A stretch of DNA of 64,000 nt from a bacterium. GTDB taxonomy: Bacteria > Patescibacteriota > Microgenomatia > UBA1400 > PJMF01. Under the pieces are notes generated by a model, which was given only the letters and a program-made list of their open reading frames with translations, was not told where the DNA came from and did not search any database. Positions 3,815 to 21,301 of this stretch are shown here, piece after piece. Numbering within the stretch: the stretch's first letter is position 1; each line of letters starts with the position of its first letter. The DNA is taken from contig JAFRKQ010000021.1 of assembly GCA_017431625.1 (NCBI GenBank), positions 13,324-77,323 of the forward strand. Direction: 5' to 3'. The translations under genes and the position numbers were made by a program.

Positions 3815-3837
3815 CTTGGTGTAGTTTCGGAACTCTC

Positions 3838-3858
3838 GAGAGAGAGAGAGAGAGAGAG
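3838..3858. repeat. (GA)10 dinucleotide microsatellite, 25 nt upstream of the large glycosyltransferase ORF
   Basis: gagagagagagagagagagag flanked by tcgag on both sides. Confidence 0.95.
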
Positions 3859-3882
3859 TCGAGAACACGAAGTAGTACGTGT

Positions 3883-6800
3883 TTGTTATCACAATTCGAT
3901 TTGAATCTGGATAAGCCAGTAGCAGAAGGTGAGAGGCAAGACCAGAGCGAAAGTATCCAGACTGTTTATAACGATGGAAAAGTTGAAAAGCAGATTCTTG
4001 ACTGTTTGTTCCGAGGTGATGCTCCCGCGACAATAGAAGACAATACTGGGGTAGTGTTTCATAATTTTACGAATGCCCGGGAAAATTTACTCAATTGGTA
4101 TCCATTTAATAAGAATGCTGAGATTCTAGAGGTCGGTGCGGGTATGGGTGGCCTAACCGGTTTATTATGTGATCGGGTAGCTCATGTAACTGCTTTAGAG
4201 AACGCTCCACAGCGTGCTGATATTATTAGGATGCGTTATGCAGAAAAGAAAAATTTAACAGTAATTACTGGCAATTTGGCAGATATTGATAAAAATAGCA
4301 AGTTTGATTATATTTTGGTAGTAGGAGTACTTGAATACGTAGACATTGGAAAATCGTCCGGCAGACAAGCACATTTGGATTTTCTATCTCAAGTGAAACT
4401 CATGTTAAAACCAGGAGGGATTTTGTTGCTGGCAATCGAAAATAGATTTGGTTTGAAGTACTGGTGCGGTGCGGCTGAAGATCACATTGGCAAGCCTTTT
4501 GTTGGTATTGAAGGTTATAAAGATAGTTATACAACTAGATATCAATCGCGAGGTGTAACAACTTTTGACAAGCAATCATTAGCTGATTTATGCAAAGAAG
4601 TGGGTTTGGTTTATCAGCGTTGGTATTACCCTCTTGCTGATTATAAATTTCCCACAGCGATCTTTAGTGATGACAAATTACCTAGTTTAAGTGATATTGC
4701 CAGAATTAAGTTCACTTACCCTCAAGAGTCGACACTGATAGCCGATGAGAGAGAACTTTACCGTGAAATAATTAGTAATGATGTATTTCCTTTTTTTGCC
4801 AATTCTTTTTTATTAGAGACATCGACAACTGATTTACCCAGCGATAATGTAATGTGTGCATTCTTAAAGCGTGATTATGCTGCTCAATATCGGCTAGCCA
4901 CTATTTTCATGCGCGATACGGTAGAAAAAGTGGCTTTGAATGGCAAGGCTAAAAATCATTTAAACGAATTAATTAACAATACCAATGCGATTAAAAAAAG
5001 AGGCGTGCCAATTTTGGAAGGAAAATTATTAGATGAGCGCTGGATATTGAAAAAAATATCAATGCCTTTAGCAAATAAAAAAATGGCAGAATGGCTGGAG
5101 CGAGGAGATTTAGCGTCAATTAAAGATTTGTGTGAAAAGTTGGAGACATATTTAAAGAAGTCTTCGCCCTTTTTCAGTGCCAAAAATGTCTACAACTGTG
5201 AACTTGGAGATTTTGTCTTTGACCAGGAAGAAGTGATTTTAGAAGACGGTTATATTGACTTGACCTTTAATAATAGTTTTTATCAAGATAGCGATTTATT
5301 ATTCTTTGATCAGGAGTGGCGTTTAAAAAATGTACCTTTGAAATTTATTCTCTATCGTGCTTTGCTTTATGCTTTTAAAGATAATAGCTTTTTAAGCTTT
5401 GACAAACTTCTAGCGACCGTCAAAATTAATGAAACCATGACACAACAGTTTGCCCGAGCAGAAAAAATAATGTTGTCTTCAATTATGGATGATGAGATGG
5501 TAAAAAGATTCGACAGCGATATGTACCATGAAGGATTAACGTTGAATTATCAAAGAAAACAAGAGTTATCCAACAAACAGGCTCACATTGAAACATTGCT
5601 TGAATCTGAACGCAGTTTAAATCAAATAATTGACAATCAAAAAAAACAATTGACTGATCAAAGCGTGACAATTGACAACCAACATGGTCATATCGAGCAG
5701 CTTCTCGAAAAAGAACGTGCTTGGGAACGAGAGAAAAATTCTAAAGCCTATCAGCTAGCAATGAAGTTTAGTGCCACCTCACAATTTTTCTTGCCAGAAA
5801 AAAGTCGGCGGCGATTTTTATTCAAGGCAGCCAATAAAGTGATTAATGATCCCAGTTTACTACCGAAAGCTTTGGACCCACAACGTTGGCGAGATTACTT
5901 AAGTTTAATGAATAATGGTGAATTTGCGCAAGCAGAAAAGCAACTCGATCAAGCAGCTGTCAATCAGCGAAATGCTAATATCGCTTTAGATGTTTCAAAG
6001 TATGACATTACTCTAGTGACGCCAGAATTGCAACCGATAGGTGTCTACAGACACTTAACGTTCCCGCAAGTCTCTCAGCCTCTAGTTTCGATCATTATCC
6101 CAGTTTATAATCAGTTCAATTACACCTATTATTGTTTGGCATCAATTTTGAAACATACTCAAGACATTGATTATGAGGTAATTATTGCCGATGATTGTTC
6201 GACTGACCTGACTACAGAGATCGCGCAGCTGATAGACAATATAAAGATTGTGAGGACACCCCACAATCTGCGCTTTTTACGTAACTGTAATTATGCGGCC
6301 AAAACAGCACGCGGCAAGTATATATTATTTCTCAATAACGACACCCAGGTACAAGAAAAGTGGTTATCATCACTTTTGGATTTGATTGAAAATGATAAAA
6401 CTATTGGTATGGTGGGATCTAAATTGATTTATCCAGATGGCCGTTTGCAAGAAGCCGGCGGGCTTGTTTGGAATGACGCCAGCGCTTGGAATTACGGCCA
6501 AGGTCAAAATCCAGAGTTACCAGAGTTTAATTACGTGAAAGAATGTGATTATATTTCTGGGGCGGCGATCATGATCAGACATTCCTTGTGGGATGAAATT
6601 GGTGGATTTGATGAGAGATTCGCACCGGCATACTGCGAGGATTCTGATTTAGCTTTTAGCGTCCGTCAACATGGTTTCAAAGTTGTTTTTCAGCCATTAT
6701 CAATAGTGGTACATTTTGAAGGTGTCTCAAATGGCACCGATCTGAGTAGTGGTCAAAAAAAATATCAGGTAGAAAATACGAAAAAGTTTTATCAAAAGTG

Positions 6801-7995
6801 GCAAAAAATATTGCGTGCCGATCAATTTGCCAATGCACAGAATGTTTTCTTGGCTTGCGATCGGAGTCGATATCGACAGCACGTTTTATTTGTGGATCAT
6901 TACGTGCCAATGTATGATCAAGATGCTGGCAGCAAAACGACGTATGCGTACATAAAAATGCTAGCGCAAAAAGGTTTTGCGGTAACTTTTTTAGGTGATA
7001 ACTTTTACCGGCACGAACCATATACGACCGCTCTACAGCAATTAGGCGTACGCGTACTTTACGGCACCCAGGTTGCTAATAATTTAGAGTCTTGGTTTGT
7101 CCATAATGGCAAATATTTTGACATCTTTTATTTAAATCGACCTCATATATCTGTTAAATATTTAGATTTAATCAGAAATTATTCTTCTGGCAAAGTTATT
7201 TATTATGGTCATGATTTACACTTCTTGCGCACTAGACGAGAATATGAGCTCTCTGGTGATGAAAAAAAACTGACGGAAGCGATGGAATGGCAGGAAAAAG
7301 AGCTATCTATTATGCGACGTACTGACATGAATTATTATCCGTCGAGTGTAGAAGTTCAAGAAATTGCCAAGCTGGATCCACAAATACCGGTAAAGGCAAT
7401 TAGCGCCTATATTTTTTCGGCCGCATCAAAAGTCGATTACCAAGCAGCAAAGACCGATGGGATTTTGTTTGTTGGCGGTTTTGCACACGGGCCCAATCTT
7501 GACGCTGTCAAATGGTTTGTGACAAAAATATATCCAGAAATCTATCACCAGACTCATGCTCCTTTTTATATTGTTGGCTCTAAAGCTCCTGAAGAGATTA
7601 AAAGCATTGATGTACCAGGAGTGATTTGTAAAGGTTTTGTAAGCGAAAAAGAGCTTGAGGAGTTATACCAAAGTTGTCGTCTTAGTGTCGCTCCACTGCG
7701 ATACGGAGCAGGTATCAAAGGAAAAGTAATTGAAGCTTTTTATCATGGTAGTCCAATGGTGACAACATCAGTGGGTATTGAAGGAATAGACGGGGCAAGT
7801 GATTTTGTTTGCGTACGCGATCAAGCGATTGATTTTTCCGAAGCCGTGATCAAACTATATCATAATACAGAAAAATTAAACCGCATTTCCAATTTGTCTA
7901 AGCAGTATGTAGAAAATCACTTTAGTGAAAAATCTGCCTGGGAGATAATTAATGATGATTTTGGCAATGCAAACCAAAAAGAAAGATCCAAATGA
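3883..7995 (+). CDS. Multidomain glycan-synthesis enzyme: class I SAM-methyltransferase, coiled coil, GT2 glycosyltransferase, GT4/GT1-type glycosyltransferase (1370 aa)
   Basis: Motif I ILEVGAGMGGLTGLL (MTase). Heptad-like Q/E/K-rich segment at about aa 550-620. GT2 core VSIIIPVYNQ...DYEVIIADDCSTD...CED. C-terminal GT4-like EX7E region EAFYHGSPMVTTSVGIEG. First in-frame start is TTG at 3883 (no upstream ATG), so the start is uncertain. Very AT-rich. Confidence 0.8.
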   Translation: MLSQFDLNLDKPVAEGERQDQSESIQTVYNDGKVEKQILDCLFRGDAPATIEDNTGVVFHNFTNARENLLNWYPFNKNAEILEVGAGMGGLTGLLCDRVAHVTALENAPQRADIIRMRYAEKKNLTVITGNLADIDKNSKFDYILVVGVLEYVDIGKSSGRQAHLDFLSQVKLMLKPGGILLLAIENRFGLKYWCGAAEDHIGKPFVGIEGYKDSYTTRYQSRGVTTFDKQSLADLCKEVGLVYQRWYYPLADYKFPTAIFSDDKLPSLSDIARIKFTYPQESTLIADERELYREIISNDVFPFFANSFLLETSTTDLPSDNVMCAFLKRDYAAQYRLATIFMRDTVEKVALNGKAKNHLNELINNTNAIKKRGVPILEGKLLDERWILKKISMPLANKKMAEWLERGDLASIKDLCEKLETYLKKSSPFFSAKNVYNCELGDFVFDQEEVILEDGYIDLTFNNSFYQDSDLLFFDQEWRLKNVPLKFILYRALLYAFKDNSFLSFDKLLATVKINETMTQQFARAEKIMLSSIMDDEMVKRFDSDMYHEGLTLNYQRKQELSNKQAHIETLLESERSLNQIIDNQKKQLTDQSVTIDNQHGHIEQLLEKERAWEREKNSKAYQLAMKFSATSQFFLPEKSRRRFLFKAANKVINDPSLLPKALDPQRWRDYLSLMNNGEFAQAEKQLDQAAVNQRNANIALDVSKYDITLVTPELQPIGVYRHLTFPQVSQPLVSIIIPVYNQFNYTYYCLASILKHTQDIDYEVIIADDCSTDLTTEIAQLIDNIKIVRTPHNLRFLRNCNYAAKTARGKYILFLNNDTQVQEKWLSSLLDLIENDKTIGMVGSKLIYPDGRLQEAGGLVWNDASAWNYGQGQNPELPEFNYVKECDYISGAAIMIRHSLWDEIGGFDERFAPAYCEDSDLAFSVRQHGFKVVFQPLSIVVHFEGVSNGTDLSSGQKKYQVENTKKFYQKWQKILRADQFANAQNVFLACDRSRYRQHVLFVDHYVPMYDQDAGSKTTYAYIKMLAQKGFAVTFLGDNFYRHEPYTTALQQLGVRVLYGTQVANNLESWFVHNGKYFDIFYLNRPHISVKYLDLIRNYSSGKVIYYGHDLHFLRTRREYELSGDEKKLTEAMEWQEKELSIMRRTDMNYYPSSVEVQEIAKLDPQIPVKAISAYIFSAASKVDYQAAKTDGILFVGGFAHGPNLDAVKWFVTKIYPEIYHQTHAPFYIVGSKAPEEIKSIDVPGVICKGFVSEKELEELYQSCRLSVAPLRYGAGIKGKVIEAFYHGSPMVTTSVGIEGIDGASDFVCVRDQAIDFSEAVIKLYHNTEKLNRISNLSKQYVENHFSEKSAWEIINDDFGNANQKERSK

Positions 7996-8999
7996 TTATT
8001 ACGCAAACTCCATTTCGGATGTCTTTTTTTGGCGGTGGAACTGACTTTCCCGAATTTTTTCGTGAGCATGGTGGCAGCGTAATATCGTCTACTTTTGATA
8101 AGTATGCATATGTAAACGTCCGCCATTTGCCGCCATTTTTTGATTATACTAGTGAAATATCTTATTCAAAACTAGAACGGGTAAAAAGTGTTAATGAGAT
8201 TGAGCATCCGGCAGTGCGTGAAACCATGAAATATCTAGATATGCATGATTTGCGTATCTCATATGAAGCTGATTTACCAGCACGTTCCGGCTTGGGGACA
8301 AGTAGCTCTTTTGTCGTGGGGATGTTACATGCTTTCTATGCGCTTAAAGGCAAATACGCAAGCAAAAAGCATTTAGCTGACGACGCAATTTATTTAGAAA
8401 GAGAACTGTGCAAAGAGACAGGCGGTATCCAAGACCAAATTGCTGTCAGTTTTGGCGGTTTTAACAGAATTAATTTTGATGTTAAAGGTTACAGTGTCAA
8501 TCCCATTATTATTTCTCCTAGTCGTTTGCAGCAGCTAAATGATTCCTTACTACTTTATTTCACTGGTTTTTCTCGTATTTCTGCTGATATTCAAGTGCAG
8601 ACACAAAAAAATCTCAAAAATAATACGAATACATTACTAGAAATGCTAGAATTAGTGGATGAAGCCGAAAAAATTCTTACTAGCAAAACGAATTTAGATG
8701 AATTTGGACGGCTGCTTGATTATACTTGGAAATTAAAACGCGGTTTGACGGATAAGGTTTCTACTGGTTGCATAGATGATATTTACGCTGAGGCACTCAA
8801 AGCCGGCGCTTTGGGAGGCAAACTCTTGGGAGCTGGCGGTGGTGGCTTCTTACTCTTTTATGTTGCACCAGAAAAGCATGCTCAAGTAAAAGAATGTTTG
8901 TCGCGTTTATTGTATGTGCCTTTTTGTTTTGAAACTGGTGGCACACGTGTTATTCACTACACGCCAGAAATTTATGATGATCGTGGAGAGGATAAGTAA
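7992..8999 (+). CDS. hddA: GHMP-family sugar kinase, D-glycero-D-manno-heptose 7-phosphate kinase (HddA-like)
   Basis: GHMP motif PARSGLGTSSSFVVGML. The N-terminus (MSFFGGGTDFPEFF) fits HddA. ATGA overlap with the upstream stop. Confidence 0.75.
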   Translation: MIITQTPFRMSFFGGGTDFPEFFREHGGSVISSTFDKYAYVNVRHLPPFFDYTSEISYSKLERVKSVNEIEHPAVRETMKYLDMHDLRISYEADLPARSGLGTSSSFVVGMLHAFYALKGKYASKKHLADDAIYLERELCKETGGIQDQIAVSFGGFNRINFDVKGYSVNPIIISPSRLQQLNDSLLLYFTGFSRISADIQVQTQKNLKNNTNTLLEMLELVDEAEKILTSKTNLDEFGRLLDYTWKLKRGLTDKVSTGCIDDIYAEALKAGALGGKLLGAGGGGFLLFYVAPEKHAQVKECLSRLLYVPFCFETGGTRVIHYTPEIYDDRGEDK

Positions 9000-10279
9000 T
9001 GAAAAAACCTCCTGCAGTAATCATGGCTGGTGGCAAAGGAACACGAATCGCAGCGATAAACGCAACTGTGCCTAAACCAATGATAGAGATTGCTGACAAA
9101 CCAATCTTGCAATATGAGTTGGAAGTGCTGTCGCGACAAGGCTATCGTGATGTTACTATTGTTACGGGACATCTCGGCCATGCAATCCAAGAATATTTTG
9201 GTGACGGCAGCAGTTTTGATTTGCAAATTAACTATCTGCACGAAAAAGAACCTTTAGGCACAGCGGGTGCGCTTTATTGGTTAAAAGGTAAAGTCTCTAC
9301 CGATTTCTTGTTGCTTAATGCGGATATTATTTTTGATGTCGATCTGGATCGTTTTTACCGTTATCACCAAGCACAAAAAACGACAGCGACGATTTTGACC
9401 CATCCTAACGCTCATCCCTATGACAGTGCAATTATTGCTGCAGACAAAAATAACATTGCAACTGCTTGGTTACATAAAGAAGACACACGACTCTGGTATC
9501 GCAACCGCGTCAATGCTGGGTTGCACTTTTTATCGCCTTCTGTTTTCGCGAGCTATAAAACTCTAGAAAAAAAAGACTTGGATCGAGATATTCTCAAACC
9601 ATTAATTGAAACCCACCAACTAAGTGTCTATGACTCTCCAGAATACGTCAAAGATATGGGTACGCCTGATCGCTATGAAAATGTAATCAAAGATCTACGC
9701 GATGGCTTAGTAGCAGCAAGAAATCTCAATCGGCGACAAAAAGCAATCTTTTTGGATCGTGACGGCACTTTAAATAAAGATGCTGGCTTTTTGACAAATA
9801 TTGACCAGCTGGAATTAATTCCTGGAGCGAGCGAAGCAGTAAAGTTAATTAATGATAGCGGTTACTTAGCAATTGTCGTCACCAATCAACCAGCAATAGC
9901 GCGTGGAGAATTAACTATTGCACAGTTGGATTTGATTCATCAAAAATTGGAAACTTTATTGGGGCAAGATGGCGCTTATCTTGACGCTATTTATTATTGC
10001 CCACATCATCCAGATAAAGGTTTTTCTGGAGAACGACCAGAATATAAAATTGAGTGTGAGTGTCGCAAACCAAAGCCAGGAATGCTGCTGCAAGCAGCTA
10101 GACATTTTAATATTGATTTGTCATCATCTTGGATGATTGGTGATAGTATTAAAGATATTGAAGCCGGAAAGGCAGTCAATTGTTACACTGCACTTTTGAG
10201 TAAAGAGCAAGCGAATATACAGCCAGATTTGTCGGCACGCGATTTATTGTCAGCAGTCAAAAAGATATTGGACAAATAG
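8999..10279 (+). CDS. Bifunctional heptose-1-phosphate nucleotidyltransferase (HddC-like) fused to D,D-heptose 1,7-bisphosphate phosphatase (GmhB, HAD family)
   Basis: N-terminal MAGGKGTRIA...GTAGALY nucleotidyltransferase. C-terminal AIFLDRDGTLN (HAD motif I) plus the Zn-finger signature CPHHPD...CECRKPKPGML typical of GmhB. Confidence 0.8.
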   Translation: MKKPPAVIMAGGKGTRIAAINATVPKPMIEIADKPILQYELEVLSRQGYRDVTIVTGHLGHAIQEYFGDGSSFDLQINYLHEKEPLGTAGALYWLKGKVSTDFLLLNADIIFDVDLDRFYRYHQAQKTTATILTHPNAHPYDSAIIAADKNNIATAWLHKEDTRLWYRNRVNAGLHFLSPSVFASYKTLEKKDLDRDILKPLIETHQLSVYDSPEYVKDMGTPDRYENVIKDLRDGLVAARNLNRRQKAIFLDRDGTLNKDAGFLTNIDQLELIPGASEAVKLINDSGYLAIVVTNQPAIARGELTIAQLDLIHQKLETLLGQDGAYLDAIYYCPHHPDKGFSGERPEYKIECECRKPKPGMLLQAARHFNIDLSSSWMIGDSIKDIEAGKAVNCYTALLSKEQANIQPDLSARDLLSAVKKILDK

Positions 10280-10282
10280 AAT

Positions 10283-10924
10283 ATGTCACAAAATAAATAT
10301 TTAGCTGAATTACTTATAAGATATCCGAGATTAGCGGCTTGCGAAAACAGTGTTTACCAAACATATCAAATGTTACTAGATAGTTTTGCCAATCAACATA
10401 AACTTCTTGTAGCTGGCAATGGGGGAAGTTGCGCTGACGCAGAGCATTTAGTGGGTGAATTGATGAAAGGCTTTTGTTTACCGCGACTTTTAGATGAACA
10501 ACAAAAGCAGAAGTTAATAAGCATTGATGATGAAATCGGTAAAACTTTAGGTAAAAAATTACAAGGTGCTCTTCCCACTCTCGCACTAACAAATCACAAT
10601 GCATTAAATACAGCTTATCTTAATGATGTTGATGGACTTTATATTTACGCGCAACAGGTTTACGGCTACGGCCAAGTTGGCGACGTCTTTTTGGGGATTA
10701 GCACTTCAGGCAATTCTAAAAACATCCTTAATGCAGCCGTAACGGCAAAAGCAAAACAGCTAAAAGTGATTGGTTTAACGGGGGAAAATGGTGGTAGATT
10801 AAAAGATTATTGTGATGTCTGTATCTGTGTGCCAGAAACGGAAACATTTAAAGTCCAAGAATTGCATTTGCCAGTTTATCATTGTTTAGCATTGATGTTG
10901 GAAGAGAAGTTTTTTGGAAAGTGA
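10283..10924 (+). CDS. gmhA: Sedoheptulose-7-phosphate isomerase (SIS domain)
   Basis: LVAGNGGSCADAEHLVGEL, ISTSGNS and QELHL motifs match the GmhA consensus. Confidence 0.85.
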   Translation: MSQNKYLAELLIRYPRLAACENSVYQTYQMLLDSFANQHKLLVAGNGGSCADAEHLVGELMKGFCLPRLLDEQQKQKLISIDDEIGKTLGKKLQGALPTLALTNHNALNTAYLNDVDGLYIYAQQVYGYGQVGDVFLGISTSGNSKNILNAAVTAKAKQLKVIGLTGENGGRLKDYCDVCICVPETETFKVQELHLPVYHCLALMLEEKFFGK

Positions 10925-10962
10925 TATGAAAAACCGAACGCTATGTACTCCAGGATCATAAT

Positions 10963-13809
10963 ATGCTAACACTTAAAAAGTTTTATTTGACACATTTTCT
11001 TAACAAAAAACAGATACGAGATTTGCTGGAATTCTTATCAGTTATACTTGCCATTAATATCCTAATAATTATCGGCGTGAAAAATGGGCTTTTTTTTCTA
11101 GAAAGTGGTGTACTCTATCGAGACGTCCCTGTTTATAAGTTTGCCGATAGTCTCAAAAGTGGCGACGATAGCGTAGAACAAGAGTTTATTCCTAAGATGC
11201 CAGGGCTTACGAGAATTGATATCAGATTGGCCTATGCAGGTAATATTGAGGATGATCATGCACAAGCACTTTTAACTTTAAGCGACGATGAGGGGAATAT
11301 TTTATCTGAACATATTGTTACTGGAGATAATTTTGAAAACTGGCGCTATTTTAGTATAGACGCTAGGGGCTTGCAATGTGGACACAAGTATGTCATCAAA
11401 ATGCAACAACAATCACAGAATTTGACTCCAGACGGCGATTTTGCAACTTCGTGGGCTCCTTTTGTTTATGAAGCCGATGAAATCCTATCCAAGGATAAAA
11501 CTTTTCCTCAAGAGAATCTCACTAGTTATTATAATCATGCAGTACGTAATTACCATTGGGACATTCATTATGTCTATGGAAGAACAGTTTATCTATATAT
11601 GCTTTTTATTGATATAATAGTGTTTAGCGTGTATATACTGGGGTCTATTTTTTTAAAACACATGGCTCTGCAAAAAAAGAAACAATGTTTAAATTCAGAT
11701 ATAAAAACGATCACAAATGCCATTTTGATTAGCAATTGCTTAGTGGCTAGTTATTTAATTTATGTTGTTTATGTTTGGTTTCTTGAGTTAGTAGATTTTG
11801 TTTGCTATTTTTTTCAGTGGCCGCAAGCGACACCAATTTCTCGCATTATGGTGGCTTCTTTTACTATGTTACTAGTCTTTTTCTGCAAAAGAAAGAAAGC
11901 GTTTATCGTGGGAAGGTTGTCCTTTAATTGGAAATTATTGCTGGCCATTGTATTTTTTATCCTGCTGAGTGCGACCAAAATTGTGTATCCAGATACTAGT
12001 GCGGATACCTTTAATTATCATTTATTGGCACAGCAGCCGGGATTTGTAAACTATTTTAAACAAGGTTTTGGCGCAGGGGGATTTCAGGTGTGGGGTTTCC
12101 GCCTTGGAGATCGTTTATATTATCCATTTCGAGTGTTGCTGGGGTATAGGTTGGGGACTGTTTTAAATACCATAGTTGTCATAATCATCTACTTACAACT
12201 AGTTCTTATTATGCAAACATTTACTAAGGACAATGTGCGAAAGTTCTGTTTGTCTCCTGAAATGTTTGCTTTACTTTTACTGGCCACGCAGTGGGACACT
12301 CTATTAATGATGGGCATATACTATGTGGATATTTTATCTATCCCTTTAATTTTGGAAGCATTTAGAATACTTGCTTCTCATGAAAATGAGAAAATAAATA
12401 CAACTAAAATAATTTACTTGTCTTTTCTACTGGGGTTTGCTTTTGCCTTCAAAATGACGAATATTGCATTTGTGTTACCATTGGGAATGGTTTTATTGGT
12501 AAAATCTTGGAAAAAAATTACGCCCGTTAGCTTTATTGTCGCCGGTCTTGCTTGTGTTTTACCGGTTAGTATTTATTTAATATTTAATTTTGTTTGTACA
12601 CGTAATCCAGTTTTCCCTTATTATAACAAGATTTTCCGATCTCCATATTTTAAGATCGCAAATTTTAAAGATAATAGATGGGGCGGGAGTGACACCAAGC
12701 AACAACTACTCTGGTTTTATCATATCGTAAAGCACCCAGAAAGCCGCGTTTCGGAAATTAATAATCCTAACACTACATTCATACTATTTTCACTATTTGC
12801 GTTCATTTTGCTACTTTCTTTGGTTGTATATTATCACTGGAGGAAGCGTTATACTTACAAATCATTCTTCACGTATATTGGCATGATTATATTTTCATAT
12901 TTGATTTGGACATTTTCAACTGGTTATCCGCGCTACTATATTGGCGGTTTTATATTATGGGGATTGGCAATTTATTTATGCCTTTATTTATTTTCCCAAA
13001 AAAATTTACTTGTAACTAATGTACTTAGTGTTATGTTCATTGTTGTTTCATTGCTAATTGCCAAAGACGAGGCGTGGACAGTTGTTGTCGCCGGTCATGA
13101 ATGGTCATGGCGTCAATTCTCTATGGCCACATACAAGATACAATTACCATTGATATTCCATGACAAAATATGGTATTTGCCTGATAATCAAGAATTTCCT
13201 GATAAATTTATTTTGACTGAGGCAACCACGGGGGACGTCGTTTTAGCTAACCCGCGGGCTTCTATCATAGCCTTATATTATCAACGTTGGCTGGATAATC
13301 AGGAAACTATAAACGATCTTCACAATAAAGCAAAACAAGCATTAAATTCGAGAGGATATATCATTTTAAGAAGTGCTAAGAATCTAAAAGCGATTATTGA
13401 CGAACTAAATAAGTATAGTTTATACTTAAATGATATACAGATGATATATACCAATCAGGCTCAGCGTTATTTAGGATTGGTAGAAAGACTTATGGATGCA
13501 ACCAACTCAGGCGAATTAGTTACAGATGATTTTCATACTACATTAAATATTAAACCAAACCGCAATAATGTAAATTTTATATATGTATGTATTACATCCA
13601 ATGAAGGAGGAAATTGCGATTATCATGTCACTCTATCTCAAGATAATGCAGTAGTTTATGAAGAAAATATTAATATAGGAAAAGATCAAACTGGAAAATT
13701 AGATATGAATATATCTGAAGAAGTGTCACCAGACACCCTAGACGTTTCTATTATGAACAATCGAGCTAATAGCTCTGGCAGTCAATTGGCAATCATCAAC
13801 TTGCACTAA
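10963..13809 (+). CDS. Large polytopic membrane protein (948 aa, >12 predicted TM helices plus a C-terminal soluble domain). Possible GT-C-type glycosyltransferase, oligosaccharyltransferase or polymerase
   Basis: ATG at 10963. Long hydrophobic helices throughout aa 200-700, then a hydrophilic ~250-aa C-terminal domain. AT-rich. No catalytic motif recognised, so the functional call is by context. Confidence 0.6.
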   Translation: MLTLKKFYLTHFLNKKQIRDLLEFLSVILAINILIIIGVKNGLFFLESGVLYRDVPVYKFADSLKSGDDSVEQEFIPKMPGLTRIDIRLAYAGNIEDDHAQALLTLSDDEGNILSEHIVTGDNFENWRYFSIDARGLQCGHKYVIKMQQQSQNLTPDGDFATSWAPFVYEADEILSKDKTFPQENLTSYYNHAVRNYHWDIHYVYGRTVYLYMLFIDIIVFSVYILGSIFLKHMALQKKKQCLNSDIKTITNAILISNCLVASYLIYVVYVWFLELVDFVCYFFQWPQATPISRIMVASFTMLLVFFCKRKKAFIVGRLSFNWKLLLAIVFFILLSATKIVYPDTSADTFNYHLLAQQPGFVNYFKQGFGAGGFQVWGFRLGDRLYYPFRVLLGYRLGTVLNTIVVIIIYLQLVLIMQTFTKDNVRKFCLSPEMFALLLLATQWDTLLMMGIYYVDILSIPLILEAFRILASHENEKINTTKIIYLSFLLGFAFAFKMTNIAFVLPLGMVLLVKSWKKITPVSFIVAGLACVLPVSIYLIFNFVCTRNPVFPYYNKIFRSPYFKIANFKDNRWGGSDTKQQLLWFYHIVKHPESRVSEINNPNTTFILFSLFAFILLLSLVVYYHWRKRYTYKSFFTYIGMIIFSYLIWTFSTGYPRYYIGGFILWGLAIYLCLYLFSQKNLLVTNVLSVMFIVVSLLIAKDEAWTVVVAGHEWSWRQFSMATYKIQLPLIFHDKIWYLPDNQEFPDKFILTEATTGDVVLANPRASIIALYYQRWLDNQETINDLHNKAKQALNSRGYIILRSAKNLKAIIDELNKYSLYLNDIQMIYTNQAQRYLGLVERLMDATNSGELVTDDFHTTLNIKPNRNNVNFIYVCITSNEGGNCDYHVTLSQDNAVVYEENINIGKDQTGKLDMNISEEVSPDTLDVSIMNNRANSSGSQLAIINLH

Positions 13810-14005
13810 GTAATTAAATCAACTAAAGATGTTCTGATTGTCCAGATAATGTAGGTTAAGTAAAATTTCGTGCAGGTTTTACTCTTGCAAAATATGAATT
13901 ATGTTATTATGCAAAACAGCAACCATCTTGTCCAAATTCAAATACTCACAAACTAACAGATAGATTAACAAATGGATTAACAAATATAAACACACTTCAT
14001 AGCTA

Positions 14006-14236
14006 TCACCGTTTTATTCTTTCAGTATAATTCTTAATGATGTCTTTTCCTCTTAATTCACATGATTGAATTAACATTTCTATCTTACTGGGTTCATCAA
14101 GATTGTTTAGATTTAATTCATCATATAAGTGTTTCACATTTTCTTTTAGTTTTTCTAATAGTTCTGGAGTCATAACTCTGATTGCTGAATTTGAAGCCTC
14201 CACGGCAGCCAGCAGTGGTGCTGTCGTAATCCCCAA
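14006..14236 (-). CDS. Small hypothetical helical protein (55-76 aa) in an AT-rich spacer
   Basis: ATG-initiated ORF with amphipathic-helix-like sequence (MTPELLEKLKENVKHLYDEL...). It overlaps an antisense ORF (14103..14477) whose first half looks non-coding. Confidence 0.3.
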   Translation of the reverse strand: MGITTAPLLAAVEASNSAIRVMTPELLEKLKENVKHLYDELNLNNLDEPSKIEMLIQSCELRGKDIIKNYTERIKR

Positions 14237-14481
14237 ACTTTTTTACCGAGGCTATATTGCTCGCGATGAAAGTCACAATACTTTCCCTATCGTCAATGGT
14301 GACAATAATTGTGCCGCCGTCCTGTTACCGGCCAACTATCATGGTATTATCACTGTAGAATACCAAAAAAGAAAAATCTGGATTTTGGGCGAATGGATAT
14401 CCGTCATCACTTTGTGTGTACTCATCAGCATCGCCGTTATCACATACTGCAACCAGCGACGCACACAAACATCATAAATTA

Positions 14482-14521
14482 CTGCCACTCCCCGCCATTT
14501 CTGGCAAAAATTCGCACTAAA
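14482..14521. repeat. R1 repeat, copy 1 (CTGCCACTCCCCGCCATTTCTGGCAAAAATTCGCACTAAA)
   Basis: About 88% identical 40-nt copy at 15809-15848. Copy 1 overlaps the -35 region of the downstream ATPase gene (TATAAT at 14536-14541). Confidence 0.8.
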
Positions 14522-14548
14522 TTGTTCATTTCCATGTTATAATAAGTT

Positions 14549-15799
14549 ATGCTCGAAATCAAACGTGACTACTATCTGCGCCAACTGATCGCCCAGCGTG
14601 GCTCTAGTTTCATCAAAATCATTACTGGCTTGCGCCGTGCCGGCAAATCCTACTTGCTCGATCCAATTTTTCGCCAATTCTTACTTCAAGATGGCGTCGC
14701 GCCGGATCATATCATTCACCTCAATTTGGAAGAGTTTGAAAACCGCTGCTTGCTTGACCCCTCCGCATTATTCACTTTTGTCAAAAAACAAATCGCCGAT
14801 AGTCAAACTTATTACGTGCTCCTCGATGAAATCCAACTTGTGCCCGGTTTCGAGTCCATTCTCTCCAGTTTTCTCCACCTAGACAATCTCGACGTTTACG
14901 TGACTGGCAGTAACTCACGTTTCTTGTCTTCAGACGTCATCACTCAATTTCGCGGCCGTGGCACCCAAATTCACCTGTATCCACTCAGCTTTGGCGAAAT
15001 TTATGCCGCCTTAGGCGGTGATAAATACGAGCTCTGGGAGCGTTATTACCGTTACGGTGGCTTGCCGCAAGTGGTCCAGCAGCCCGATGACCAAGCCCGG
15101 ATCTCCTTTTTAGAAGCACAAAAAGACAATGTTTATCTCAATGACTTAATAGAACGTTATCGTATCCGCAATAGTGACAGTCTGGGTATCCTCAGTAGTG
15201 TCATCGCTTCAGACGTGGGTGCGCTCACCAACCCCCACAAACTCGAGCGCACCTTCAAAAGCAAAATTGGTGTCGACCTAAGCTACCACAAAATCGAGGA
15301 TTATTTAGAAAAACTCCAAAACGCTTTTTTAATCGAAAAATCTAAACGTTTTGACGTCAAAGGCAAACGTTATATTGATACTCCGGTAAAATACTACTTT
15401 ACTGATCCCGGCATTCGCAACGCTTTCGTTGATTTCCGCCAAACAGAAGAATCTCATCTGATGGAAAATATTATCTATAATGAACTCCGCCGCCGCGGAT
15501 TCAAAGTCGATGTCGGCACGGTCGAAACCAGAGGGGAAAATGGCACTCGCCAACAATTAGAGGTGGATTTTGTCGCGAGAAAGGCCGATAATACATATTA
15601 TATTCAATCAGCCCTCACGATCGGTGATAGTGCCAAAAGATACCAAGAATCACGCTCGCTAGATCACATTAATGATCACTTCAGCAAGATCATCATCGCC
15701 AAAGATACTTTTGCTCCCGGCCACGAGCGCAACGGCATTGCTACCATCGGTCTTTTTGGCTTTTTACTCGATGACAAAATCCTAGATAAATATCAATAG
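14549..15799 (+). CDS. AAA+ ATPase of the COG1373 / AAA_14 + DUF4143 family (paralog 1)
   Basis: Walker A GLRRAGKSYLL. Walker B YVLLDEIQ. The length and C-terminal half are consistent with DUF4143-type proteins. ATG at 14549 with TTATAAT 7 nt upstream. Confidence 0.7.
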   Translation: MLEIKRDYYLRQLIAQRGSSFIKIITGLRRAGKSYLLDPIFRQFLLQDGVAPDHIIHLNLEEFENRCLLDPSALFTFVKKQIADSQTYYVLLDEIQLVPGFESILSSFLHLDNLDVYVTGSNSRFLSSDVITQFRGRGTQIHLYPLSFGEIYAALGGDKYELWERYYRYGGLPQVVQQPDDQARISFLEAQKDNVYLNDLIERYRIRNSDSLGILSSVIASDVGALTNPHKLERTFKSKIGVDLSYHKIEDYLEKLQNAFLIEKSKRFDVKGKRYIDTPVKYYFTDPGIRNAFVDFRQTEESHLMENIIYNELRRRGFKVDVGTVETRGENGTRQQLEVDFVARKADNTYYIQSALTIGDSAKRYQESRSLDHINDHFSKIIIAKDTFAPGHERNGIATIGLFGFLLDDKILDKYQ

Positions 15800-15808
15800 T
15801 GTCACTCT

Positions 15809-15848
15809 ACTGCCAATTTCCGCCATTTTTGGCAAAAATTCGCACTAA
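15809..15848. repeat. R1 repeat, copy 2
   Basis: Direct repeat of 14482-14521, beginning 10 nt after the stop of ATPase paralog 1. Confidence 0.8.
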
Positions 15849-16049
15849 ACCAACCAGAAATAATCTAAACAGGTTCAAACACATTTCGGAATAAAAATTT
15901 GGGTTAAGTAAAAAAAACGTGGAGGTTTTTTGCATGGCTTTTAGCGGTGTATACGTAAAATTGGCATTATTTTGCACTTTTTGAGTGCTAAAATACACCA
16001 ATTGCGACCAAGAAGTAGGCAACACCAAATCTGTGTTGCACTCCCACTT

Positions 16050-16140
16050 AACCCCACATTTCGTGAAAAAACAGCCAAAATTAACTTTACATTTCGTGAT
16101 ATTTTGCCAAAAATTAAGCTTACATTTCGTGAAAAAACAC
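16050..16140. repeat. R2 array A: three tandem 33-bp units with core TTACATTTCGTGA, immediately upstream of a TTGACA -35 element
   Basis: ACATTTCGTG at 16056, 16089 and 16122 (period exactly 33 bp). Inter-core sequence is semi-conserved (GCCAAAAATTAA). TTGACA at 16141. Confidence 0.85.
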
Positions 16141-16192
16141 TTGACAATTATTCTAATAGTGATCTAATCACTAAGAAAGGTTGAAAACTATT

Positions 16193-17545
16193 ATGAAAAG
16201 GCTTATCTACGATCAGCTGCTTGAGTGGAAAAACACTGATCAAGGTCGGCACGCTGTATTAATTGAAGGCGCGCGACGTGTTGGCAAAAGTTACATTACC
16301 AATGATTTTGGCAATGACAATTACGCTTCTTACCTCACAATCGACTTTTCGGCCACTACCGATGAAATCCGTGATCTTTTTTATAACTATCTTGATCACC
16401 TTGACGATTTTTTTCACCTGCTGACCAATTATTATCAAGTTAAACTTTTTCATCGCCAGTCACTGATTATTTTTGATGAAGTTCAACATTTTCCTCGTGC
16501 CCGCGAGGCCATAAAGCGCCTTGTTGCTGACGGACGCTATGATTACATCGAAACTGGCTCCTTGATTTCCATCAAACAAAACGTCAAAGACATCCTCATA
16601 CCGTCTGAAGAAAGAAAACTAACTATGAGGCCCATGAATTTTCAAGAATTTTGCTTGGCGACCAATAATCAAATGCTTTGGGAATATATCTGCGATTGTT
16701 TCGCACAAAAAAAATCTCTGACACCACCAATGCATCGACGTGCCATGAATGTTTTTCGCCAATACCTAATTGTTGGTGGCCTGCCTCAAGCAGTAGCTGC
16801 TTTTATTAAATCTCAAGATTATACCCTAGTAGACCACGAAAAAAGAGCTATTCTTGATCTTTATCGCAATGATATTAGCAAATTTAGCGATTCAATTCGT
16901 TTTAAGGTAGAAAAAATTTTTGACGATATTCCCTCTCAACTTCAGCGACATGAAAAAAAATTTAATTTGGCCGACATTGATTACAATGCTCGCTTGCGAG
17001 AATATGACGATGCCTTTTATTGGTTGCTTGATGCAGGTTTGATCAATATTGCTTATAATACCACCGAACCAAATTTGGGTCTCAATCTTGCAAAAGATGA
17101 CCGGTATTTCAAGTGTTATCTGTTTGATACAGGTTTACTTTTAGCTATGACTTTTAATGAAAAAGAAATTGCCCGCGAAGAAATATACAAAAAGATTCTT
17201 TTCAACAAACTCGAATTTAACCAAGGCATGATTATGGAAAACCTTATCGCCCAAATGTTACGCTCAAGCGGACATCATCTTTTCTTTTATGTCAAACATG
17301 ATCGTGGTGATAATAATGAAAACATGGAGGTTGATTTTCTTTTGTCTAAAAATGTTATCACCAATAAGCACAATATTATCCCGATCGAGGTCAAAACTGG
17401 TGTTAGATACACTTACAAATCACTGCGCAAATTCTCTCAAAAATATCAGCAATTTGTCACCAAACCAATTATTATTCACCAAAATGATTTGCAAATTGAC
17501 AATGGCATTCTCTATTTGCCCGCTTACATGGCCGAGTTGCTTTAA
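16193..17545 (+). CDS. AAA+ ATPase of the COG1373 / AAA_14 + DUF4143 family (paralog 2)
   Basis: Walker A GARRVGKSYIT. Walker B IIFDEVQ. SD-like AAGAAAGG 12 nt before the ATG at 16193. The ORF track starts at TTG 16181. Confidence 0.7.
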   Translation: MKRLIYDQLLEWKNTDQGRHAVLIEGARRVGKSYITNDFGNDNYASYLTIDFSATTDEIRDLFYNYLDHLDDFFHLLTNYYQVKLFHRQSLIIFDEVQHFPRAREAIKRLVADGRYDYIETGSLISIKQNVKDILIPSEERKLTMRPMNFQEFCLATNNQMLWEYICDCFAQKKSLTPPMHRRAMNVFRQYLIVGGLPQAVAAFIKSQDYTLVDHEKRAILDLYRNDISKFSDSIRFKVEKIFDDIPSQLQRHEKKFNLADIDYNARLREYDDAFYWLLDAGLINIAYNTTEPNLGLNLAKDDRYFKCYLFDTGLLLAMTFNEKEIAREEIYKKILFNKLEFNQGMIMENLIAQMLRSSGHHLFFYVKHDRGDNNENMEVDFLLSKNVITNKHNIIPIEVKTGVRYTYKSLRKFSQKYQQFVTKPIIIHQNDLQIDNGILYLPAYMAELL

Positions 17546-17554
17546 TTGATCACT

Positions 17555-17650
17555 AACTCTACATTTCGTGAAAAAACAGCCAAAATTAACTTTACATTTC
17601 GTGTGAATTTACTCAAAATTAATCTTGCATTTAGTGAGAAATACTGTAGT
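17555..17650. repeat. R2 array B: three tandem 33-bp units (ACATTTCGTG x2, GCATTTAGTG), direct orientation relative to array A
   Basis: Cores at 17561, 17594 and 17627. Begins 16 nt after the ATPase-2 stop. The first 50 nt are nearly identical to array A. Confidence 0.85.
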
Positions 17651-17799
17651 TTTAAGACATCAAGTCAGCGACTGATAATTTTCACCAATATGCCAAATTG
17701 TCCAGCAGTCAACCGAATTGAGTTTCCGCTAGCTATTCCCAAACTTTGGCAAATTCGCCATTAATTTGGAATTGACTTTAGTGACAAAATTAACTTTGG

Positions 17800-18395
17800 A
17801 TATTATGAAGCTCCCCGACCTAACGGTCGGGGTTTCTTATCCCATTTCAAACCTTGATCTCGTTCGCTCGAGCAAGCTCGCTCACTCAAACAAGGTTTGC
17901 CCTGAATCCTTTTTGCCCTGATCCTCAATGTACCTCTTTATTATCGCTTCATTATTTCCAATGGTTGTCACAAAATACCCGTCAGACCAAATTCCATCTG
18001 TTCCCCAGTATATCTGTTTTAGCATGGGGAATTTTCGCTTGATCTCCTTCGACGTATTCGATTTAATAATGCCTACAACTTTCCCAACACTCATTGTTGG
18101 CGAAATCGAAACTAAATAGTGTATGTGGTCTTGATCATGATTCACCTTTAAAAATTTAATTTGAGGATAATGACTAGTTATTTCCGCCAACTTTAATTCA
18201 AAATAAGCGAAAATTCCATCATTGATAATTTTACGTCGGTATTTTGTGACCGTGACTAAATGGTACTCACACTCATAAACGCAATGTGACAGATGTGTTA
18301 GTGGCATCAAGATATTATACCACGGTTCCAGAGTGCAAAAACAGATTCAGGGTGCCAGCACGGCCTTACGGCCGGAATTATGGCATGGCGATATA
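17800..18395 (-). mobile_element. IS200/IS605-family insertion sequence (tnpA only) with subterminal hairpins
   Basis: Hairpins CCCCGACC-TAAC-GGTCGGGG (17811-17832) and CGGCC-TTAC-GGCCG (18353-18366) bracket the tnpA ORF. Confidence 0.7.
17882..18310 (-). CDS. tnpA: IS200-like Y1 (HUH) transposase TnpA
   Basis: 142 aa. Has the HVH-type motif (DHIHYLVSI) and the C-terminal Y...K region typical of IS200 TnpA. Confidence 0.8.
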   Translation of the reverse strand: MMPLTHLSHCVYECEYHLVTVTKYRRKIINDGIFAYFELKLAEITSHYPQIKFLKVNHDQDHIHYLVSISPTMSVGKVVGIIKSNTSKEIKRKFPMLKQIYWGTDGIWSDGYFVTTIGNNEAIIKRYIEDQGKKDSGQTLFE

Positions 18396-18404
18396 AAACG
18401 ATCT

Positions 18405-19130
18405 TTATTGAGTTAAAGTTAGCGTTTCGCCTAGAACAAAGCCAGAACCATTATAATGAGGATCACTGGTACCTTCAAAAAACACTTGAATAAACTCTGA
18501 ACCACCAATCATTTGTAAAGATCGGTTGTCTTTAACCTTAAAAACCAAATTACCAGTCACTGACTGTGACACCATATGGCTATTGCTAAATGTGAAGCCA
18601 TCAGGGTTTAGCTCGCCTTCATACCAAAAAGTGGTATTAATATAGCACGACACCTGTTCATCATTAACTGTAAAATTACCGCTATAATGCACACCTTCAC
18701 CAATATAAGACTCAAAAGTACCATCATTGTGAAATTCAATGTAATTATTATATGGACCTGCACAACCATCATAGTTATCTGAATCCTCAAAGCACTTGCA
18801 ATGACGGCCATTGTCAACAACAGGAGATCCTCCCATACAGTACGACTCTCCCAGATATTTTCCCACAATAAAATTGCTTGCCGCCGGCTTTGTGTCTGAT
18901 GAAGTCACATTGGTAACAATGGTGGTTTCTACTGGGGCTTGTTCGTCATTTGCCCCGCCACTGGTGGTCACTTGAGAGACGCTACTGGTCTCTGGCACCG
19001 ATGGCAGCGTCAAGGCAGGATTATTGTGGCTATTACGCAGCGAGAAAGCAATCGCCGCCAAGGCCACCAGAATCCCCGCGCCTATAGCAATGCCCATCAT
19101 TTGTATGATAGTGTTGTTGTTTTTTTGCAT
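18405..19130 (-). CDS. Hypothetical membrane-anchored, Cys-containing extracytoplasmic protein
   Basis: N-terminal TM anchor (GIAIGAGILVALAAIAF), then a Ser/Thr-rich linker and a Cys-containing domain. Confidence 0.55.
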   Translation of the reverse strand: MQKNNNTIIQMMGIAIGAGILVALAAIAFSLRNSHNNPALTLPSVPETSSVSQVTTSGGANDEQAPVETTIVTNVTSSDTKPAASNFIVGKYLGESYCMGGSPVVDNGRHCKCFEDSDNYDGCAGPYNNYIEFHNDGTFESYIGEGVHYSGNFTVNDEQVSCYINTTFWYEGELNPDGFTFSNSHMVSQSVTGNLVFKVKDNRSLQMIGGSEFIQVFFEGTSDPHYNGSGFVLGETLTLTQ

Positions 19131-19332
19131 AATTATAAACTATATCTTGTCCAATTGTTGTATTACAAACGAGATCTATCTCACTCGTTCACAATGAGCA
19201 TATTGTATCATAAAAATGTGTTTTGTCAATAGCTACTAATTATTATGTCCACTGCGGAGCTCCGCAATTTTCGTATGTAGACAAAATATGTACAATTGGT
19301 ATTTTTTGTTAAACGCTTACCTCTGGTTTTTC

Positions 19333-19375
19333 GTAACAAAAATGACCCTTTTGTTTCAGGGCCATTTTTATTTTT
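19333..19375 (-). terminator. Rho-independent-type hairpin downstream of dnaK
   Basis: ATGACCCT / AGGGCCAT stem with T-runs on both sides, 20-60 nt past the dnaK stop. Confidence 0.45.
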
Positions 19376-19393
19376 GCTGTCAGACGTTGCTGT

Positions 19394-21301
19394 TTAGTTC
19401 ACGACCTCACCTTCGACGACATTATCACTGCTTTTGTCCTCAGTTTTCTTGTCGTCTGCCTTGTTGGTCGTTGTATCCGCTTGCTTTTCGGCTTGGGCTT
19501 TTTGCATCGCCTCACCGATTTTTTGCGCACTCTTCATCGTGTCTTCGATCGCTTTTTCCAATTCCTCTTTGGTGGTGGAGTCAGACTCAGACAACTTCTT
19601 GAGAGCCTCAACATTATCGGCGATCGCTTTGCGGTCAGCTTCCTCGAGCTTGTCACCATAGTCTTTGAGCTGTTTCTCCATCTCAAAGGCAACACTTGAA
19701 GCTTGATTTTTGGCTTCAATCAGCTCTTTTTTGGCCTTATCTTCCTCAGCGTGCATTTCCGCCTCTTTTTTCATCTTTTCCACCTCTTCATCAGAGAGAT
19801 TGGTCGAGTTGGAAATGGTGATATTGGCCTCTTTGCCGCTGGTGCGATCTTTGGCTGAGACTTTGAGGATACCGTTGGAGTCAATATCAAAAGTGACTTC
19901 CACTTGCGGGATCCCGCGTGGCGCTGGGGGAATGCCCGAAAGGACAAACCGACCCAAAGACTTGTTGTCCGCCGCCATTTCGCGCTCACCCTGAAGCACA
20001 TTAATCTCAACACTGGTTTGATTATCAGCGGCCGTTGAGAAGACCTGATTGCCACTAGTGGGGATAGTCGTATTACGTTTGATAATCGGTGTGCGAATGC
20101 CACCCAGAGTCTCCACACCCAGAGTCAGAGGCGTGACATCAAGCAAAACGACATCTTGGACATCACCGCCAATGACGCCTGCCTGCACAGCCGCACCAAT
20201 GGCCACCACTTCATCAGGGTTGACTCCTTGCTCAGGTTTCTTGCCAAAGAATTTTTCCACCTCGGCTACCACCTTGGGCATACGGGTCATACCGCCCACG
20301 AGAACGACATTGGCGATCTCGCTAGCCTTGAGTTTGGCGTCTTTCAAAGCCGCTTCCACCGGCTTGAAAGTCCGCTGGATCAGTTCATCAGTAAGCTCTT
20401 CCAACTTGGCACGAGTGAGTGTCATCGTCAAGTGTAGGGGAGTACCCTCATCTGACTGAGTAATGAAGGGAAGGTTGATCTCAGTACTCATAGTCGCTGA
20501 CAACTCAATCTTGGCCTTTTCTGCCGCGTCTTTGACCCGTTGGAGGGCTTGTGGATCTTTGCTTAAGTCCTTACCATTGTCTTTTTTGAACTCGTCCACG
20601 ATCCACTCAATGATCTTGTTGTCAAAGTCATCACCGCCAAGGAAAGTATCGCCATTGGTGGATTTGACTTCAAAAACGCCATCGCCAATTTCGAGAATGG
20701 AGATATCAAAAGTACCGCCACCAAGGTCATAGACAGCAATTTTACTATTGCCTTTTTTGTCAAGACCATAGGCCAAAGCAGCCGCTGTTGGTTCATTGAC
20801 GATCCGCTCCACCTTGAGACCAGCAATCTCACCGGCTTGTTTGGTCGCTTGACGTTGCGAGTCATCAAAATAAGCTGGCACGGTAATAACTGCCCGATCG
20901 ACGCTACCACCCAAATAGGCTTCAGCATCTGCCTTAGCTTTTTGCAAAATCTTGGCGGAAATTTCTTGTGGAGTTAGTTTGTCGCCCTCAATTTCCAAAA
21001 CAGCCATGCCGTCTTTACCGGAGGCCACATCATAAGCAACGTGCTTGAGCGCGTTTTGCACTGGCTTAGCATTATACTTTTGCCCCATAAAACGTTTGAC
21101 GGAATTGACCGTGTTTTTGGGATTGAGCACCATCTGCCGCTTGGCCGCATCACCCACCGCCGTTTCACCTTTTTTAAAACTTACAATTGAGGGGAAGGTA
21201 TTGCGCCCTTCAGCTGTGGGGATAATCTTGGCGTGACCGCCTTCCATGACAGCAACGGCTGAGTTAGTCGTGCCCAAATCGATTCCAATTATTTTTGACA
21301 T
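19394..21301 (-). CDS. dnaK: Molecular chaperone DnaK (Hsp70)
   Basis: [18 protein letters not shown] and the full-length Hsp70 architecture. Confidence 0.97.

Follow-up and report, generated by a model that had tools for sequence, protein, structure and literature searches.

Genes and flanking repeats at the locus

The DNA analysed here (the window) is a stretch of 64,000 nucleotides from the Patescibacteria genome assembly GCA_017431625.1 (contig JAFRKQ010000021.1, positions 13,324 to 77,323 of the forward strand). It contains two neighbouring genes for ATPases with the Pfam architecture AAA_14 + DUF4143, equated here with COG1373 and with the PADLOC family PDC-S01. Each gene is bracketed by its own direct repeat, R1 around ATPase-1 and R2 around ATPase-2, and the upstream copy of each repeat is associated with the promoter of the gene. 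Homologous loci used for comparison are numbered with the prefix L. The principal features are as follows.

14480-14521, plus strand: R1 copy 1, a degenerate ~40-bp palindromic operator-type element over the -35 region of the ATPase-1 promoter
14535-14543, plus strand: likely extended -10 element of ATPase-1 (TGTTATAAT), read from the sequence and supported by the L003 orthologue
14549-15799, plus strand: ATPase-1, 416 aa, AAA_14 + DUF4143, PDC-S01 model PDLC04787
15808-15849, plus strand: R1 copy 2, starting 8 nt past the ATPase-1 stop codon; the palindrome is duplicated, the promoter is not
16043-16141, plus strand: R2 upstream array, three 33-bp units, ending at the -35 of the ATPase-2 promoter
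16141-16168, plus strand: likely ATPase-2 promoter (TTGACA, 16 nt, TGaTCTAAT); homologue promoters are likewise placed relative to the array
16193-17545, plus strand: ATPase-2, 450 aa, AAA_14 + DUF4143, PDC-S01 models PDLC04786 and PDLC04792
17548-17646, plus strand: R2 downstream array, three 33-bp units from 3 nt past the stop codon, the third diverged; no promoter follows

These boundaries refine the original prediction, which had recognised both genes, a 40-nt R1 around ATPase-1 (14482-14521 and 15809-15848) and R2 arrays in direct orientation around ATPase-2 (16050-16140 and 17555-17650). The search with hidden Markov models (HMMs) that it had proposed places both proteins above the Pfam gathering thresholds of 27 bits for AAA_14 and 28.1 bits for DUF4143. 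The N-terminal AAA_14 and C-terminal DUF4143 domains score 102.5 and 56.5 bits in ATPase-1 and 74.9 and 77.4 bits in ATPase-2, and both proteins match PDC-S01 models of PADLOC (E = 1e-113 and 7e-104). The two genes had been called paralogous, which holds for their shared domain architecture and fails for any recent duplication. Since the proteins align over 42 residues only (E = 0.001), and with different PDC-S01 sub-models, they belong to different, distant subfamilies. The possible link to defence that had been raised finds support in the match of both to PDC-S01, an unvalidated candidate defence family, reported to be the fourth commonest "defence" candidate of prokaryotes, in which an ATPase is joined to a PD-(D/E)XK domain (PMC12988326).

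The translations contain Walker A and Walker B motifs (GLRRAGKS and LLDEIQ in ATPase-1, GARRVGKS and IFDEVQ in ATPase-2), of which the residues G-K-S and D-E are invariant in both subfamily alignments. The PD-(D/E)XK motif of ATPase-2 is intact (E379-x-D381 and E399-V-K401) and invariant in 35 relatives. In the ATPase-1 family E338-x-D340 is likewise invariant, but Q353-S354-A355 replaces E-x-K. By pattern, DUF4143 consists of a putative winged-helix DNA-binding part, to which a weak match to HTH_45 (E = 0.025) also points, followed by a PD-(D/E)XK nuclease-like part. AlphaFold models of both proteins are poor (mean predicted local distance difference test, pLDDT, 52.5 and 58.1), and the C-terminal fold and any replacement lysine in ATPase-1 are unreadable from them. 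A fold search with a low-confidence model likens the N-terminal part to AAA+ modules such as those of clamp loaders, DnaA and Orc1, a resemblance at the level of a generic AAA+ module. Neither single-sequence nor profile searches of solved structures returned sequence relatives of either protein, and NCBIfam gave no informative match.

Promoter elements specific to each ATPase subfamily

R1 is 42 nt long, and its two flanking copies are 90% identical. Its 21-nt core matches twice in the window against 0.01 matches expected, and chance expectations for all repeat matches given here are at most 0.08. The ~40 bp of the element comprise four GCCAA-like sub-sites. Copy 1 is weak as a hairpin, and its counterpart at L003 is a perfect palindrome with 18-bp arms (z = -9.2); copy 2 is nearer to the family consensus than copy 1 and has a folding energy of -6.6 kcal/mol (z = -2.8). 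In the L003 orthologue of ATPase-1 the palindrome CACTGCCAATTTTAGCCAATTTTGGCTAAAATTGGCAGTG stands directly before TGCTATAAT, and R1 copy 1 is likewise placed before TGTTATAAT. Because the ATG follows the perfect extended -10 by 5 nt with no Shine-Dalgarno sequence (14535-14551), the ATPase-1 mRNA is probably leaderless. At L003 and L011 the orthologues are instead preceded by a short leader that contains AAGGA.

The R2 unit is composed of a conserved core of ~24 nt (AAAATTAAC-TT-ACATTTCGTGA) and a variable spacer of ~9 nt. The two arrays are 86% identical over 88 nt, including a perfect stretch of 43 nt (0.01 chance matches expected), and the upstream array has a lag-33 autocorrelation of 0.50 against a median of 0.29. 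Since neither array shows single-strand structure (z = +0.7 and +1.2), they are best read as double-stranded DNA sites. A consensus promoter and terminator scan, which did not rise above its shuffled expectation, listed neither promoter; the promoter calls are our own reading together with the homologues. The scan missed the ATPase-2 promoter because position 2 of its -10 hexamer is C.

The comparison covered ~150 homologous loci (148 loci fetched). ATPase-1 orthologues at L003 and L011 (70% identical) carry R1-type palindromes in the matching promoter position that align with R1, and L011 has two of them upstream. The context of the L003 orthologue differs from that in the window, as it lies between another ATPase gene and a diversity-generating retroelement. 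A repeated element of 16 nt or longer is present within 200 bp upstream of 54 out of 92 more distant ATPase-1 relatives (~40-53% identical, drawn from metagenome and viral collections), compared with 9 of 129 neighbouring control open reading frames (ORFs; p = 2e-17). These paired elements are mostly 70-89 bp apart and flank the promoter. The 14-bp palindrome core varies by sub-clade (TGCCAATATTGGCA, TGGCAATATTGCCA, TGGCACATGTGCCA, TGTCA...TGACA and others). Relatives of ATPase-1 that are 38-51% identical also occur on 19 IMG/VR contigs (L130-L148), all with paired upstream elements; no ATPase-2 relatives were found on viral contigs.

The elements of the ATPase-2 subfamily are tandem arrays. 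R2-type cores are present at the window locus and at L012 only among the 148 fetched loci. A scan of a genome collection recovered 22 ATPase-2 loci, nearly all with three or four tandem units immediately upstream, in hosts of at least six phyla (Patescibacteria, Fibrobacter, Actinomycetaceae, Firmicutes, Bacteroidetes, Elusimicrobia and Anaeroplasmataceae). Of the 23 informative ATPase-2 loci (24 tested), 20 have their strongest autocorrelation at a lag of exactly 33 bp and three at 34-35 bp. In a group of relatives at 36-38% identity the core TTTCATTTAGAAAATGC is nearly invariant and the spacers vary, and the last unit is itself the promoter, TTGAAA-17-TGCTATATT, with the core inside the promoter spacer. 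The similarity of unit consensus sequences tracks protein identity among ATPase-2 relatives (Mantel r = 0.86, p = 0.0005).

The upstream copies are thus promoter-associated elements specific to each ATPase subfamily and kept across phyla. They occur only beside these ATPase genes, in disagreement with the possibility named in the original prediction that they might be ordinary promoter elements found at many unrelated genes. No other gene is consistently linked to them at the loci examined, and since only the ATPase gene travels with the elements across phyla, the binder is likely to be the ATPase, which probably regulates its own gene. We infer from these sequence comparisons that each ATPase binds its own element and regulates its own gene.

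Locus L003 also contains a third ATPase subfamily (415 aa), with its own element of ~45 nt twice upstream (5195-5335, CAAATCGCGAAACTCCATTTTTTTCCAACTTTTGCGATTTCA). The diversity-generating retroelement-like set of this locus consists of a reverse transcriptase (RVT_1), a 156-aa accessory gene and a ~900-aa Flg_new_2/DUF6273 protein; at L003-L010 (~7340-12460 in L003), in a Saccharibacteria-like genome, the set adjoins a pair of ATPase genes.

Downstream copies and the cassette model

The downstream repeats are a recurrent minority pattern in the family, and each is either an operator copy or duplicated target DNA. Direct repeats within 400 bp on both sides were found for 13 of 82 family genes and for 4 of 124 control ORFs (p = 0.0017). 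In the window the duplicated segment is the element alone, with sharp edges that exclude the promoter. The closest relative of ATPase-2 (65% identical), at L012, lies in another context, next to a tRNA gene, and has the same bracket; its downstream copy of 91 nt is 96% identical to the upstream one, and the copies are more alike within the locus than between loci. A degenerate R1-like sequence lies just past the stop codon at L003. The two kinds of downstream repeat are distributed as follows.

Operator copies just past the stop codon: L055 (45 nt, 100% identical), L042 (40 nt), L060 (46 nt), L038, L133, L143
Duplicated host DNA flanking cassettes: L083 (214 bp), L057 (117 bp), L053 (102 bp), L017 (63 bp), L069, L104

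At L083 the duplication consists of the 3' part of a helix-turn-helix (HTH) gene, resulting in one intact gene and one fragment, and at L017 it is the 3' end of the upstream gene.

Two gene-less copies lie downstream of the R2 bracket.

17733-17772, plus strand: degenerate third R1, a lone operator-type copy with no gene
17785-17808, plus strand: a lone, seventh R2-like unit, immediately adjacent to the end hairpin of the IS200 (17813-17832)

The third R1, previously seen at ~17738-17765, is real and aligns over this somewhat longer interval; the pattern TGGCAAA(0-2)TTCGC matches at the three R1 sites only, against 0.08 matches expected. No further copies of R1 or R2 were found elsewhere in the 64-kb window.

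Related units behave as discrete cassettes. In the group of L043, a unit of ~1.45-1.56 kb, consisting of the gene with 130-226 bp upstream and 64-84 bp downstream, is ~97% identical in several unrelated contexts. L044 and L048 have both flanks in common and different ATPase genes, and a single operator of the L044 type stands just upstream of an L043-type cassette. Gene-less palindromes of other types are present at L012 and L011; those at L012 (CCGCAAAACT...TTTTGCGGATG, twice) are similar to the ~45-nt element of the third ATPase subfamily at L003 and lie downstream of the cassette, before the tRNA gene. The presence of one unit in different contexts is seen for these relatives, and the two genes of the window were found in one context only. 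On sequence grounds, both window genes are most plausibly autonomous cassettes of one gene each within an accessory island. The view of the original prediction that the repeats bound gene cassettes therefore survives in part: the units of the family are discrete, but the upstream copies are promoter elements, and only the downstream copies fit a role in boundaries or recombination.

The interpretation that we favour, with a probability of roughly 50%, is that the locus holds two independent cassettes, each with a private promoter element bound by its own ATPase, and that the brackets arose by recombination at the operators. Binding of each ATPase to its element would regulate its own gene. Such control would hold down the amount of a potentially toxic nuclease and free the gene from dependence on host regulators. 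The second copy past the stop codon would, with less certainty, be a duplicate of the operator at the far edge of the cassette. A circle of operator, promoter and gene (1,328 bp for ATPase-1 and 1,505 bp for ATPase-2) may have recombined with a resident chromosomal operator to give the order operator-gene-operator. The reverse reaction would leave a single operator, and the gene-less R1 and R2 remnants at 17733-17808 could be such leftovers. For ATPase-1 the predicted circle junction is TAGTGTCACTC + R1 + TTGTTCATTTCC, and the predicted empty-site junction is CATCATAAAT + R1 + CCAACCAG. The IS200 element would be a later, unrelated insertion.

Several observations weigh against parts of this model. 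The Mantel correlation could reflect mere co-inheritance of the upstream region with the gene, and the predicted DNA-binding domain derives from a weak HMM match and from the pattern seen in the first half of the DUF4143 sequence. A downstream copy is absent from 84-90% of family members, which makes bracketing dispensable for function; near-duplicates are numerous among the surveyed loci, and the survey counts therefore overstate the number of independent events. The flanking copies in the window differ by 10-14%, indicating that these duplications are not recent. Neither an empty site nor a circular junction was observed for the window locus; two other samples carry it at 99.96% identity. 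The order at L042 (promoter, operator, gene, operator) misfits simple integration of a circle, and RecA-type recombination would be inefficient over 42 bp.

An unlikely alternative, though one with several observations in its favour, is that both copies are working binding sites, with the downstream operator under selection for DNA looping, a block to read-through or nucleation of an oligomer, and with its origin by duplication secondary. The bracket is kept in the closest relatives in other contexts (91 nt at 96% identity at L012, a degenerate copy at L003), relatives use two or three operators ~75 bp apart in a manner suggestive of cooperative binding, and the core positions of the first two downstream R2 units in the window are perfectly conserved. 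However, most family members have no downstream copy, and decay is visible in both the third R1 and the third unit of the downstream R2 array. Further, the non-core spacers are identical as well (100% over 45 nt at L055, 96% at L012), which argues for recent duplication or gene conversion at those loci rather than selection on binding positions.

Whether the downstream copies are instead leftovers of tandem duplications of operator and gene, whose second genes were later deleted, is doubtful. Tandem arrangements do exist in the family, namely the 65% identical paralogues of L042, a 4,181-bp unit at L116 repeated at 99.6% identity and the two adjacent ATPase genes of L003. However, blastx of the intervals 15800-16192 and 17546-17810 revealed no ATPase coding remnants (E > 1), the duplicates break off abruptly where the operator or array ends and in no case take in the promoter, and duplication of the operator alone arose independently in several lineages.

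A broader proposal that we regard as similarly doubtful is that members of COG1373/PDC-S01 are self-recognising single-gene mobile elements whose repeats would serve both as operator and as site of cutting, excision and integration. If true, it would explain the brackets, the leftover operators, the long target duplications and the abundance of the family, and the association of the family with "defence islands" would in part be selfish spread. A further reading, which seems quite improbable, takes the repeats as the ends of a new type of transposable cassette, with the ATPase-nuclease as the mobility enzyme that would cut at the repeats or at the target and thereby produce long, variable target duplications. 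The intact PD-(D/E)XK motif of ATPase-2, the resemblance of the AAA+ module to the group of DnaA, Orc1 and clamp loaders (in the low-confidence model), the duplications of 29-214 bp of host DNA that flank several cassettes and the presence of identical cassettes in different contexts are consistent with such an enzyme. Against it, no strand-transfer domain is present, the ATPase-1 family has no E-x-K part of the motif, and the duplications vary in length much more than those made by known transposases. Unrelated dispersed repeats may also account for some of the flanking repeats (L058, L059), and nothing distinguishes the mechanism from host-mediated recombination.

The layout of repeat, gene, repeat and adjoining transposase is by itself similar to an integron-like array with R1 and R2 as attC-type sites, or to repeats made by the IS200 element, but this is scarcely credible, as there is no tyrosine recombinase within ~10 kb, the R2 arrays lack hairpin potential (z = +0.7 and +1.2) and the palindrome of R1 is weak, each gene has its own promoter, and the repeats accompany orthologues that have no IS200 and bear no likeness to the IS200 ends; attC sites and IS200-derived repeats were rejected on these grounds. 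The repeats were also rejected as structured RNA, since the one match of a permissive Rfam search over 13500-19500 was a chance snoRNA-like hit inside ATPase-2, and the repeats correspond to no listed RNA family.

Two of the loci with tandem arrangements have further features. At L042, where two ATPase paralogues (65% identical) stand in tandem, a fragment between them (3250-3450) has a translation resembling the C-terminal portion of a group II intron maturase, and ~300 bp upstream of the second gene, including one operator, are duplicated upstream of the first. The tandem unit of 4,181 bp (99.6% identical) on the 8,890-bp contig that carries L116 and L117 consists of a 281-aa pilin-like gene, a 458-aa gene and the ATPase. 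A protein identical to this ATPase is also present in a chromosomal mfd/SpoU context (L120-L122). A segment of ~190 bp just downstream of that ATPase lies between inverted repeats (TCGCAAAAGTATAAACTTTGCGA, TCGCAAAGTTTATACCTTTGTGA) and is in opposite orientation at L116 and L120; from its sequence, it looks like an invertible phase-variation switch in front of pilin-like genes.

Relation to known systems and genomic setting

In mobile restriction-modification systems, the controller (C) protein is a separate small helix-turn-helix regulator that binds palindromic C-boxes at its own promoter, and expression thereby becomes independent of the host. The present arrangement is similar in that a mobile, potentially toxic nuclease gene has paired palindromic operators at its own promoter. 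It differs in that the presumed binder is the ATPase-nuclease itself, and in that the 33-bp arrays and downstream duplicates have no counterpart there. Iteron-binding initiators, such as plasmid Rep proteins, dnaA with DnaA boxes and archaeal orc1/cdc6 with ORB repeats, are self-repressing. They share with these ATPases the helically phased repeats of the same orientation beside the gene of a DNA-binding protein, here predicted to be self-repressing, and possibly also the AAA+ module, given the fold matches of the low-confidence model to DnaA, Orc1 and clamp loaders. Unlike these initiators, the cassettes occur several per genome, and a nuclease-like domain replaces the initiator domain. By analogy, C-protein/C-box control and iteron-binding, self-repressing initiators would be the functionally closest known systems. 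Integron cassettes are likewise single genes between direct repeats that are stacked in an accessory locus, with different cassettes at one site, but here there is no integrase, there are no attC-like hairpins, each gene has its own promoter, and the repeat is specific to the family of the gene.

The two-domain architecture is that of PDC-S01 as published, and the layer of repeats, self-regulation and cassette structure is new here. The papers found that mention PDC-S01 or COG1373 give no validated function or mechanism and describe no associated DNA repeats, self-regulation or cassette structure. The element architecture thus appears to be both undescribed and general to the family. COG1373/PDC-S01 is among the most abundant uncharacterised families in bacteria and archaea and is routinely counted as defence with the mechanism lacking. 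If each member recognises a private promoter element, the family would have a concrete activity, sequence-specific DNA binding by an ATPase-nuclease, whose cognate site could be taken straight from the genome sequence in thousands of cases, providing a handle on the control and movement of these genes. Counts of PDC-S01 "defence systems" may then partly measure a selfish cassette.

The locus is accessory, as the original prediction had proposed. The names of DnaK and ATPase matches place the organism among the Patescibacteria (CPR). Synteny of the window with its two closest available relatives (DnaK 92-93% identical) extends over dnaK, secD and secF and ends exactly at the dnaK stop codon; left of dnaK no gene of the window, including those of the low-G+C island, is common to these two relatives. 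A comparison of cassette presence and absence had also been suggested. It shows the cassettes to be absent next to dnaK in the nearest relatives, but no strain-level variation was seen among the copies in the two other metagenome samples, which are 99.96% identical. The stretch of low G+C content (33-42% compared with ~47%) runs from tRNA-Cys (3626-3700) to dnaK and is closed by the ATPase locus. The border of this accessory glycan island is thereby marked as a place where cassettes collect in a Patescibacteria genome.

The right end of the locus is formed by an insertion sequence, as had been predicted.

17809-18395 (approximate ends), minus strand: IS200/IS605-type element (Y1_Tnp, E = 3e-33), with subterminal hairpins at 17813-17832 and ~18357-18372
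17882-18310, minus strand: IS200 TnpA (Y1 HUH transposase)

The element is present as a single copy in the window, and R1 and R2 have no similarity to its ends. The element looks incidental, since orthologues carry the same repeats with no IS200.

Within the island (3626-13809, 33-41% G+C, beginning right behind the tRNA-Cys gene) are genes for a 1370-aa methyltransferase/GT2/GT1 fusion, a GHMP kinase, a nucleotidyltransferase-HAD protein and a SIS-domain protein (heptose-type sugar pathway), as well as for a 948-aa multi-pass membrane protein with no Pfam match. Two genes with no Pfam match flank the block of ATPase genes and IS200. On one side is a 76-aa ORF (14006-14236, minus strand), which is a called gene in another assembly, and on the other is a gene for a 241-aa, Cys-rich protein predicted to be membrane-anchored (18405-19130, minus strand).

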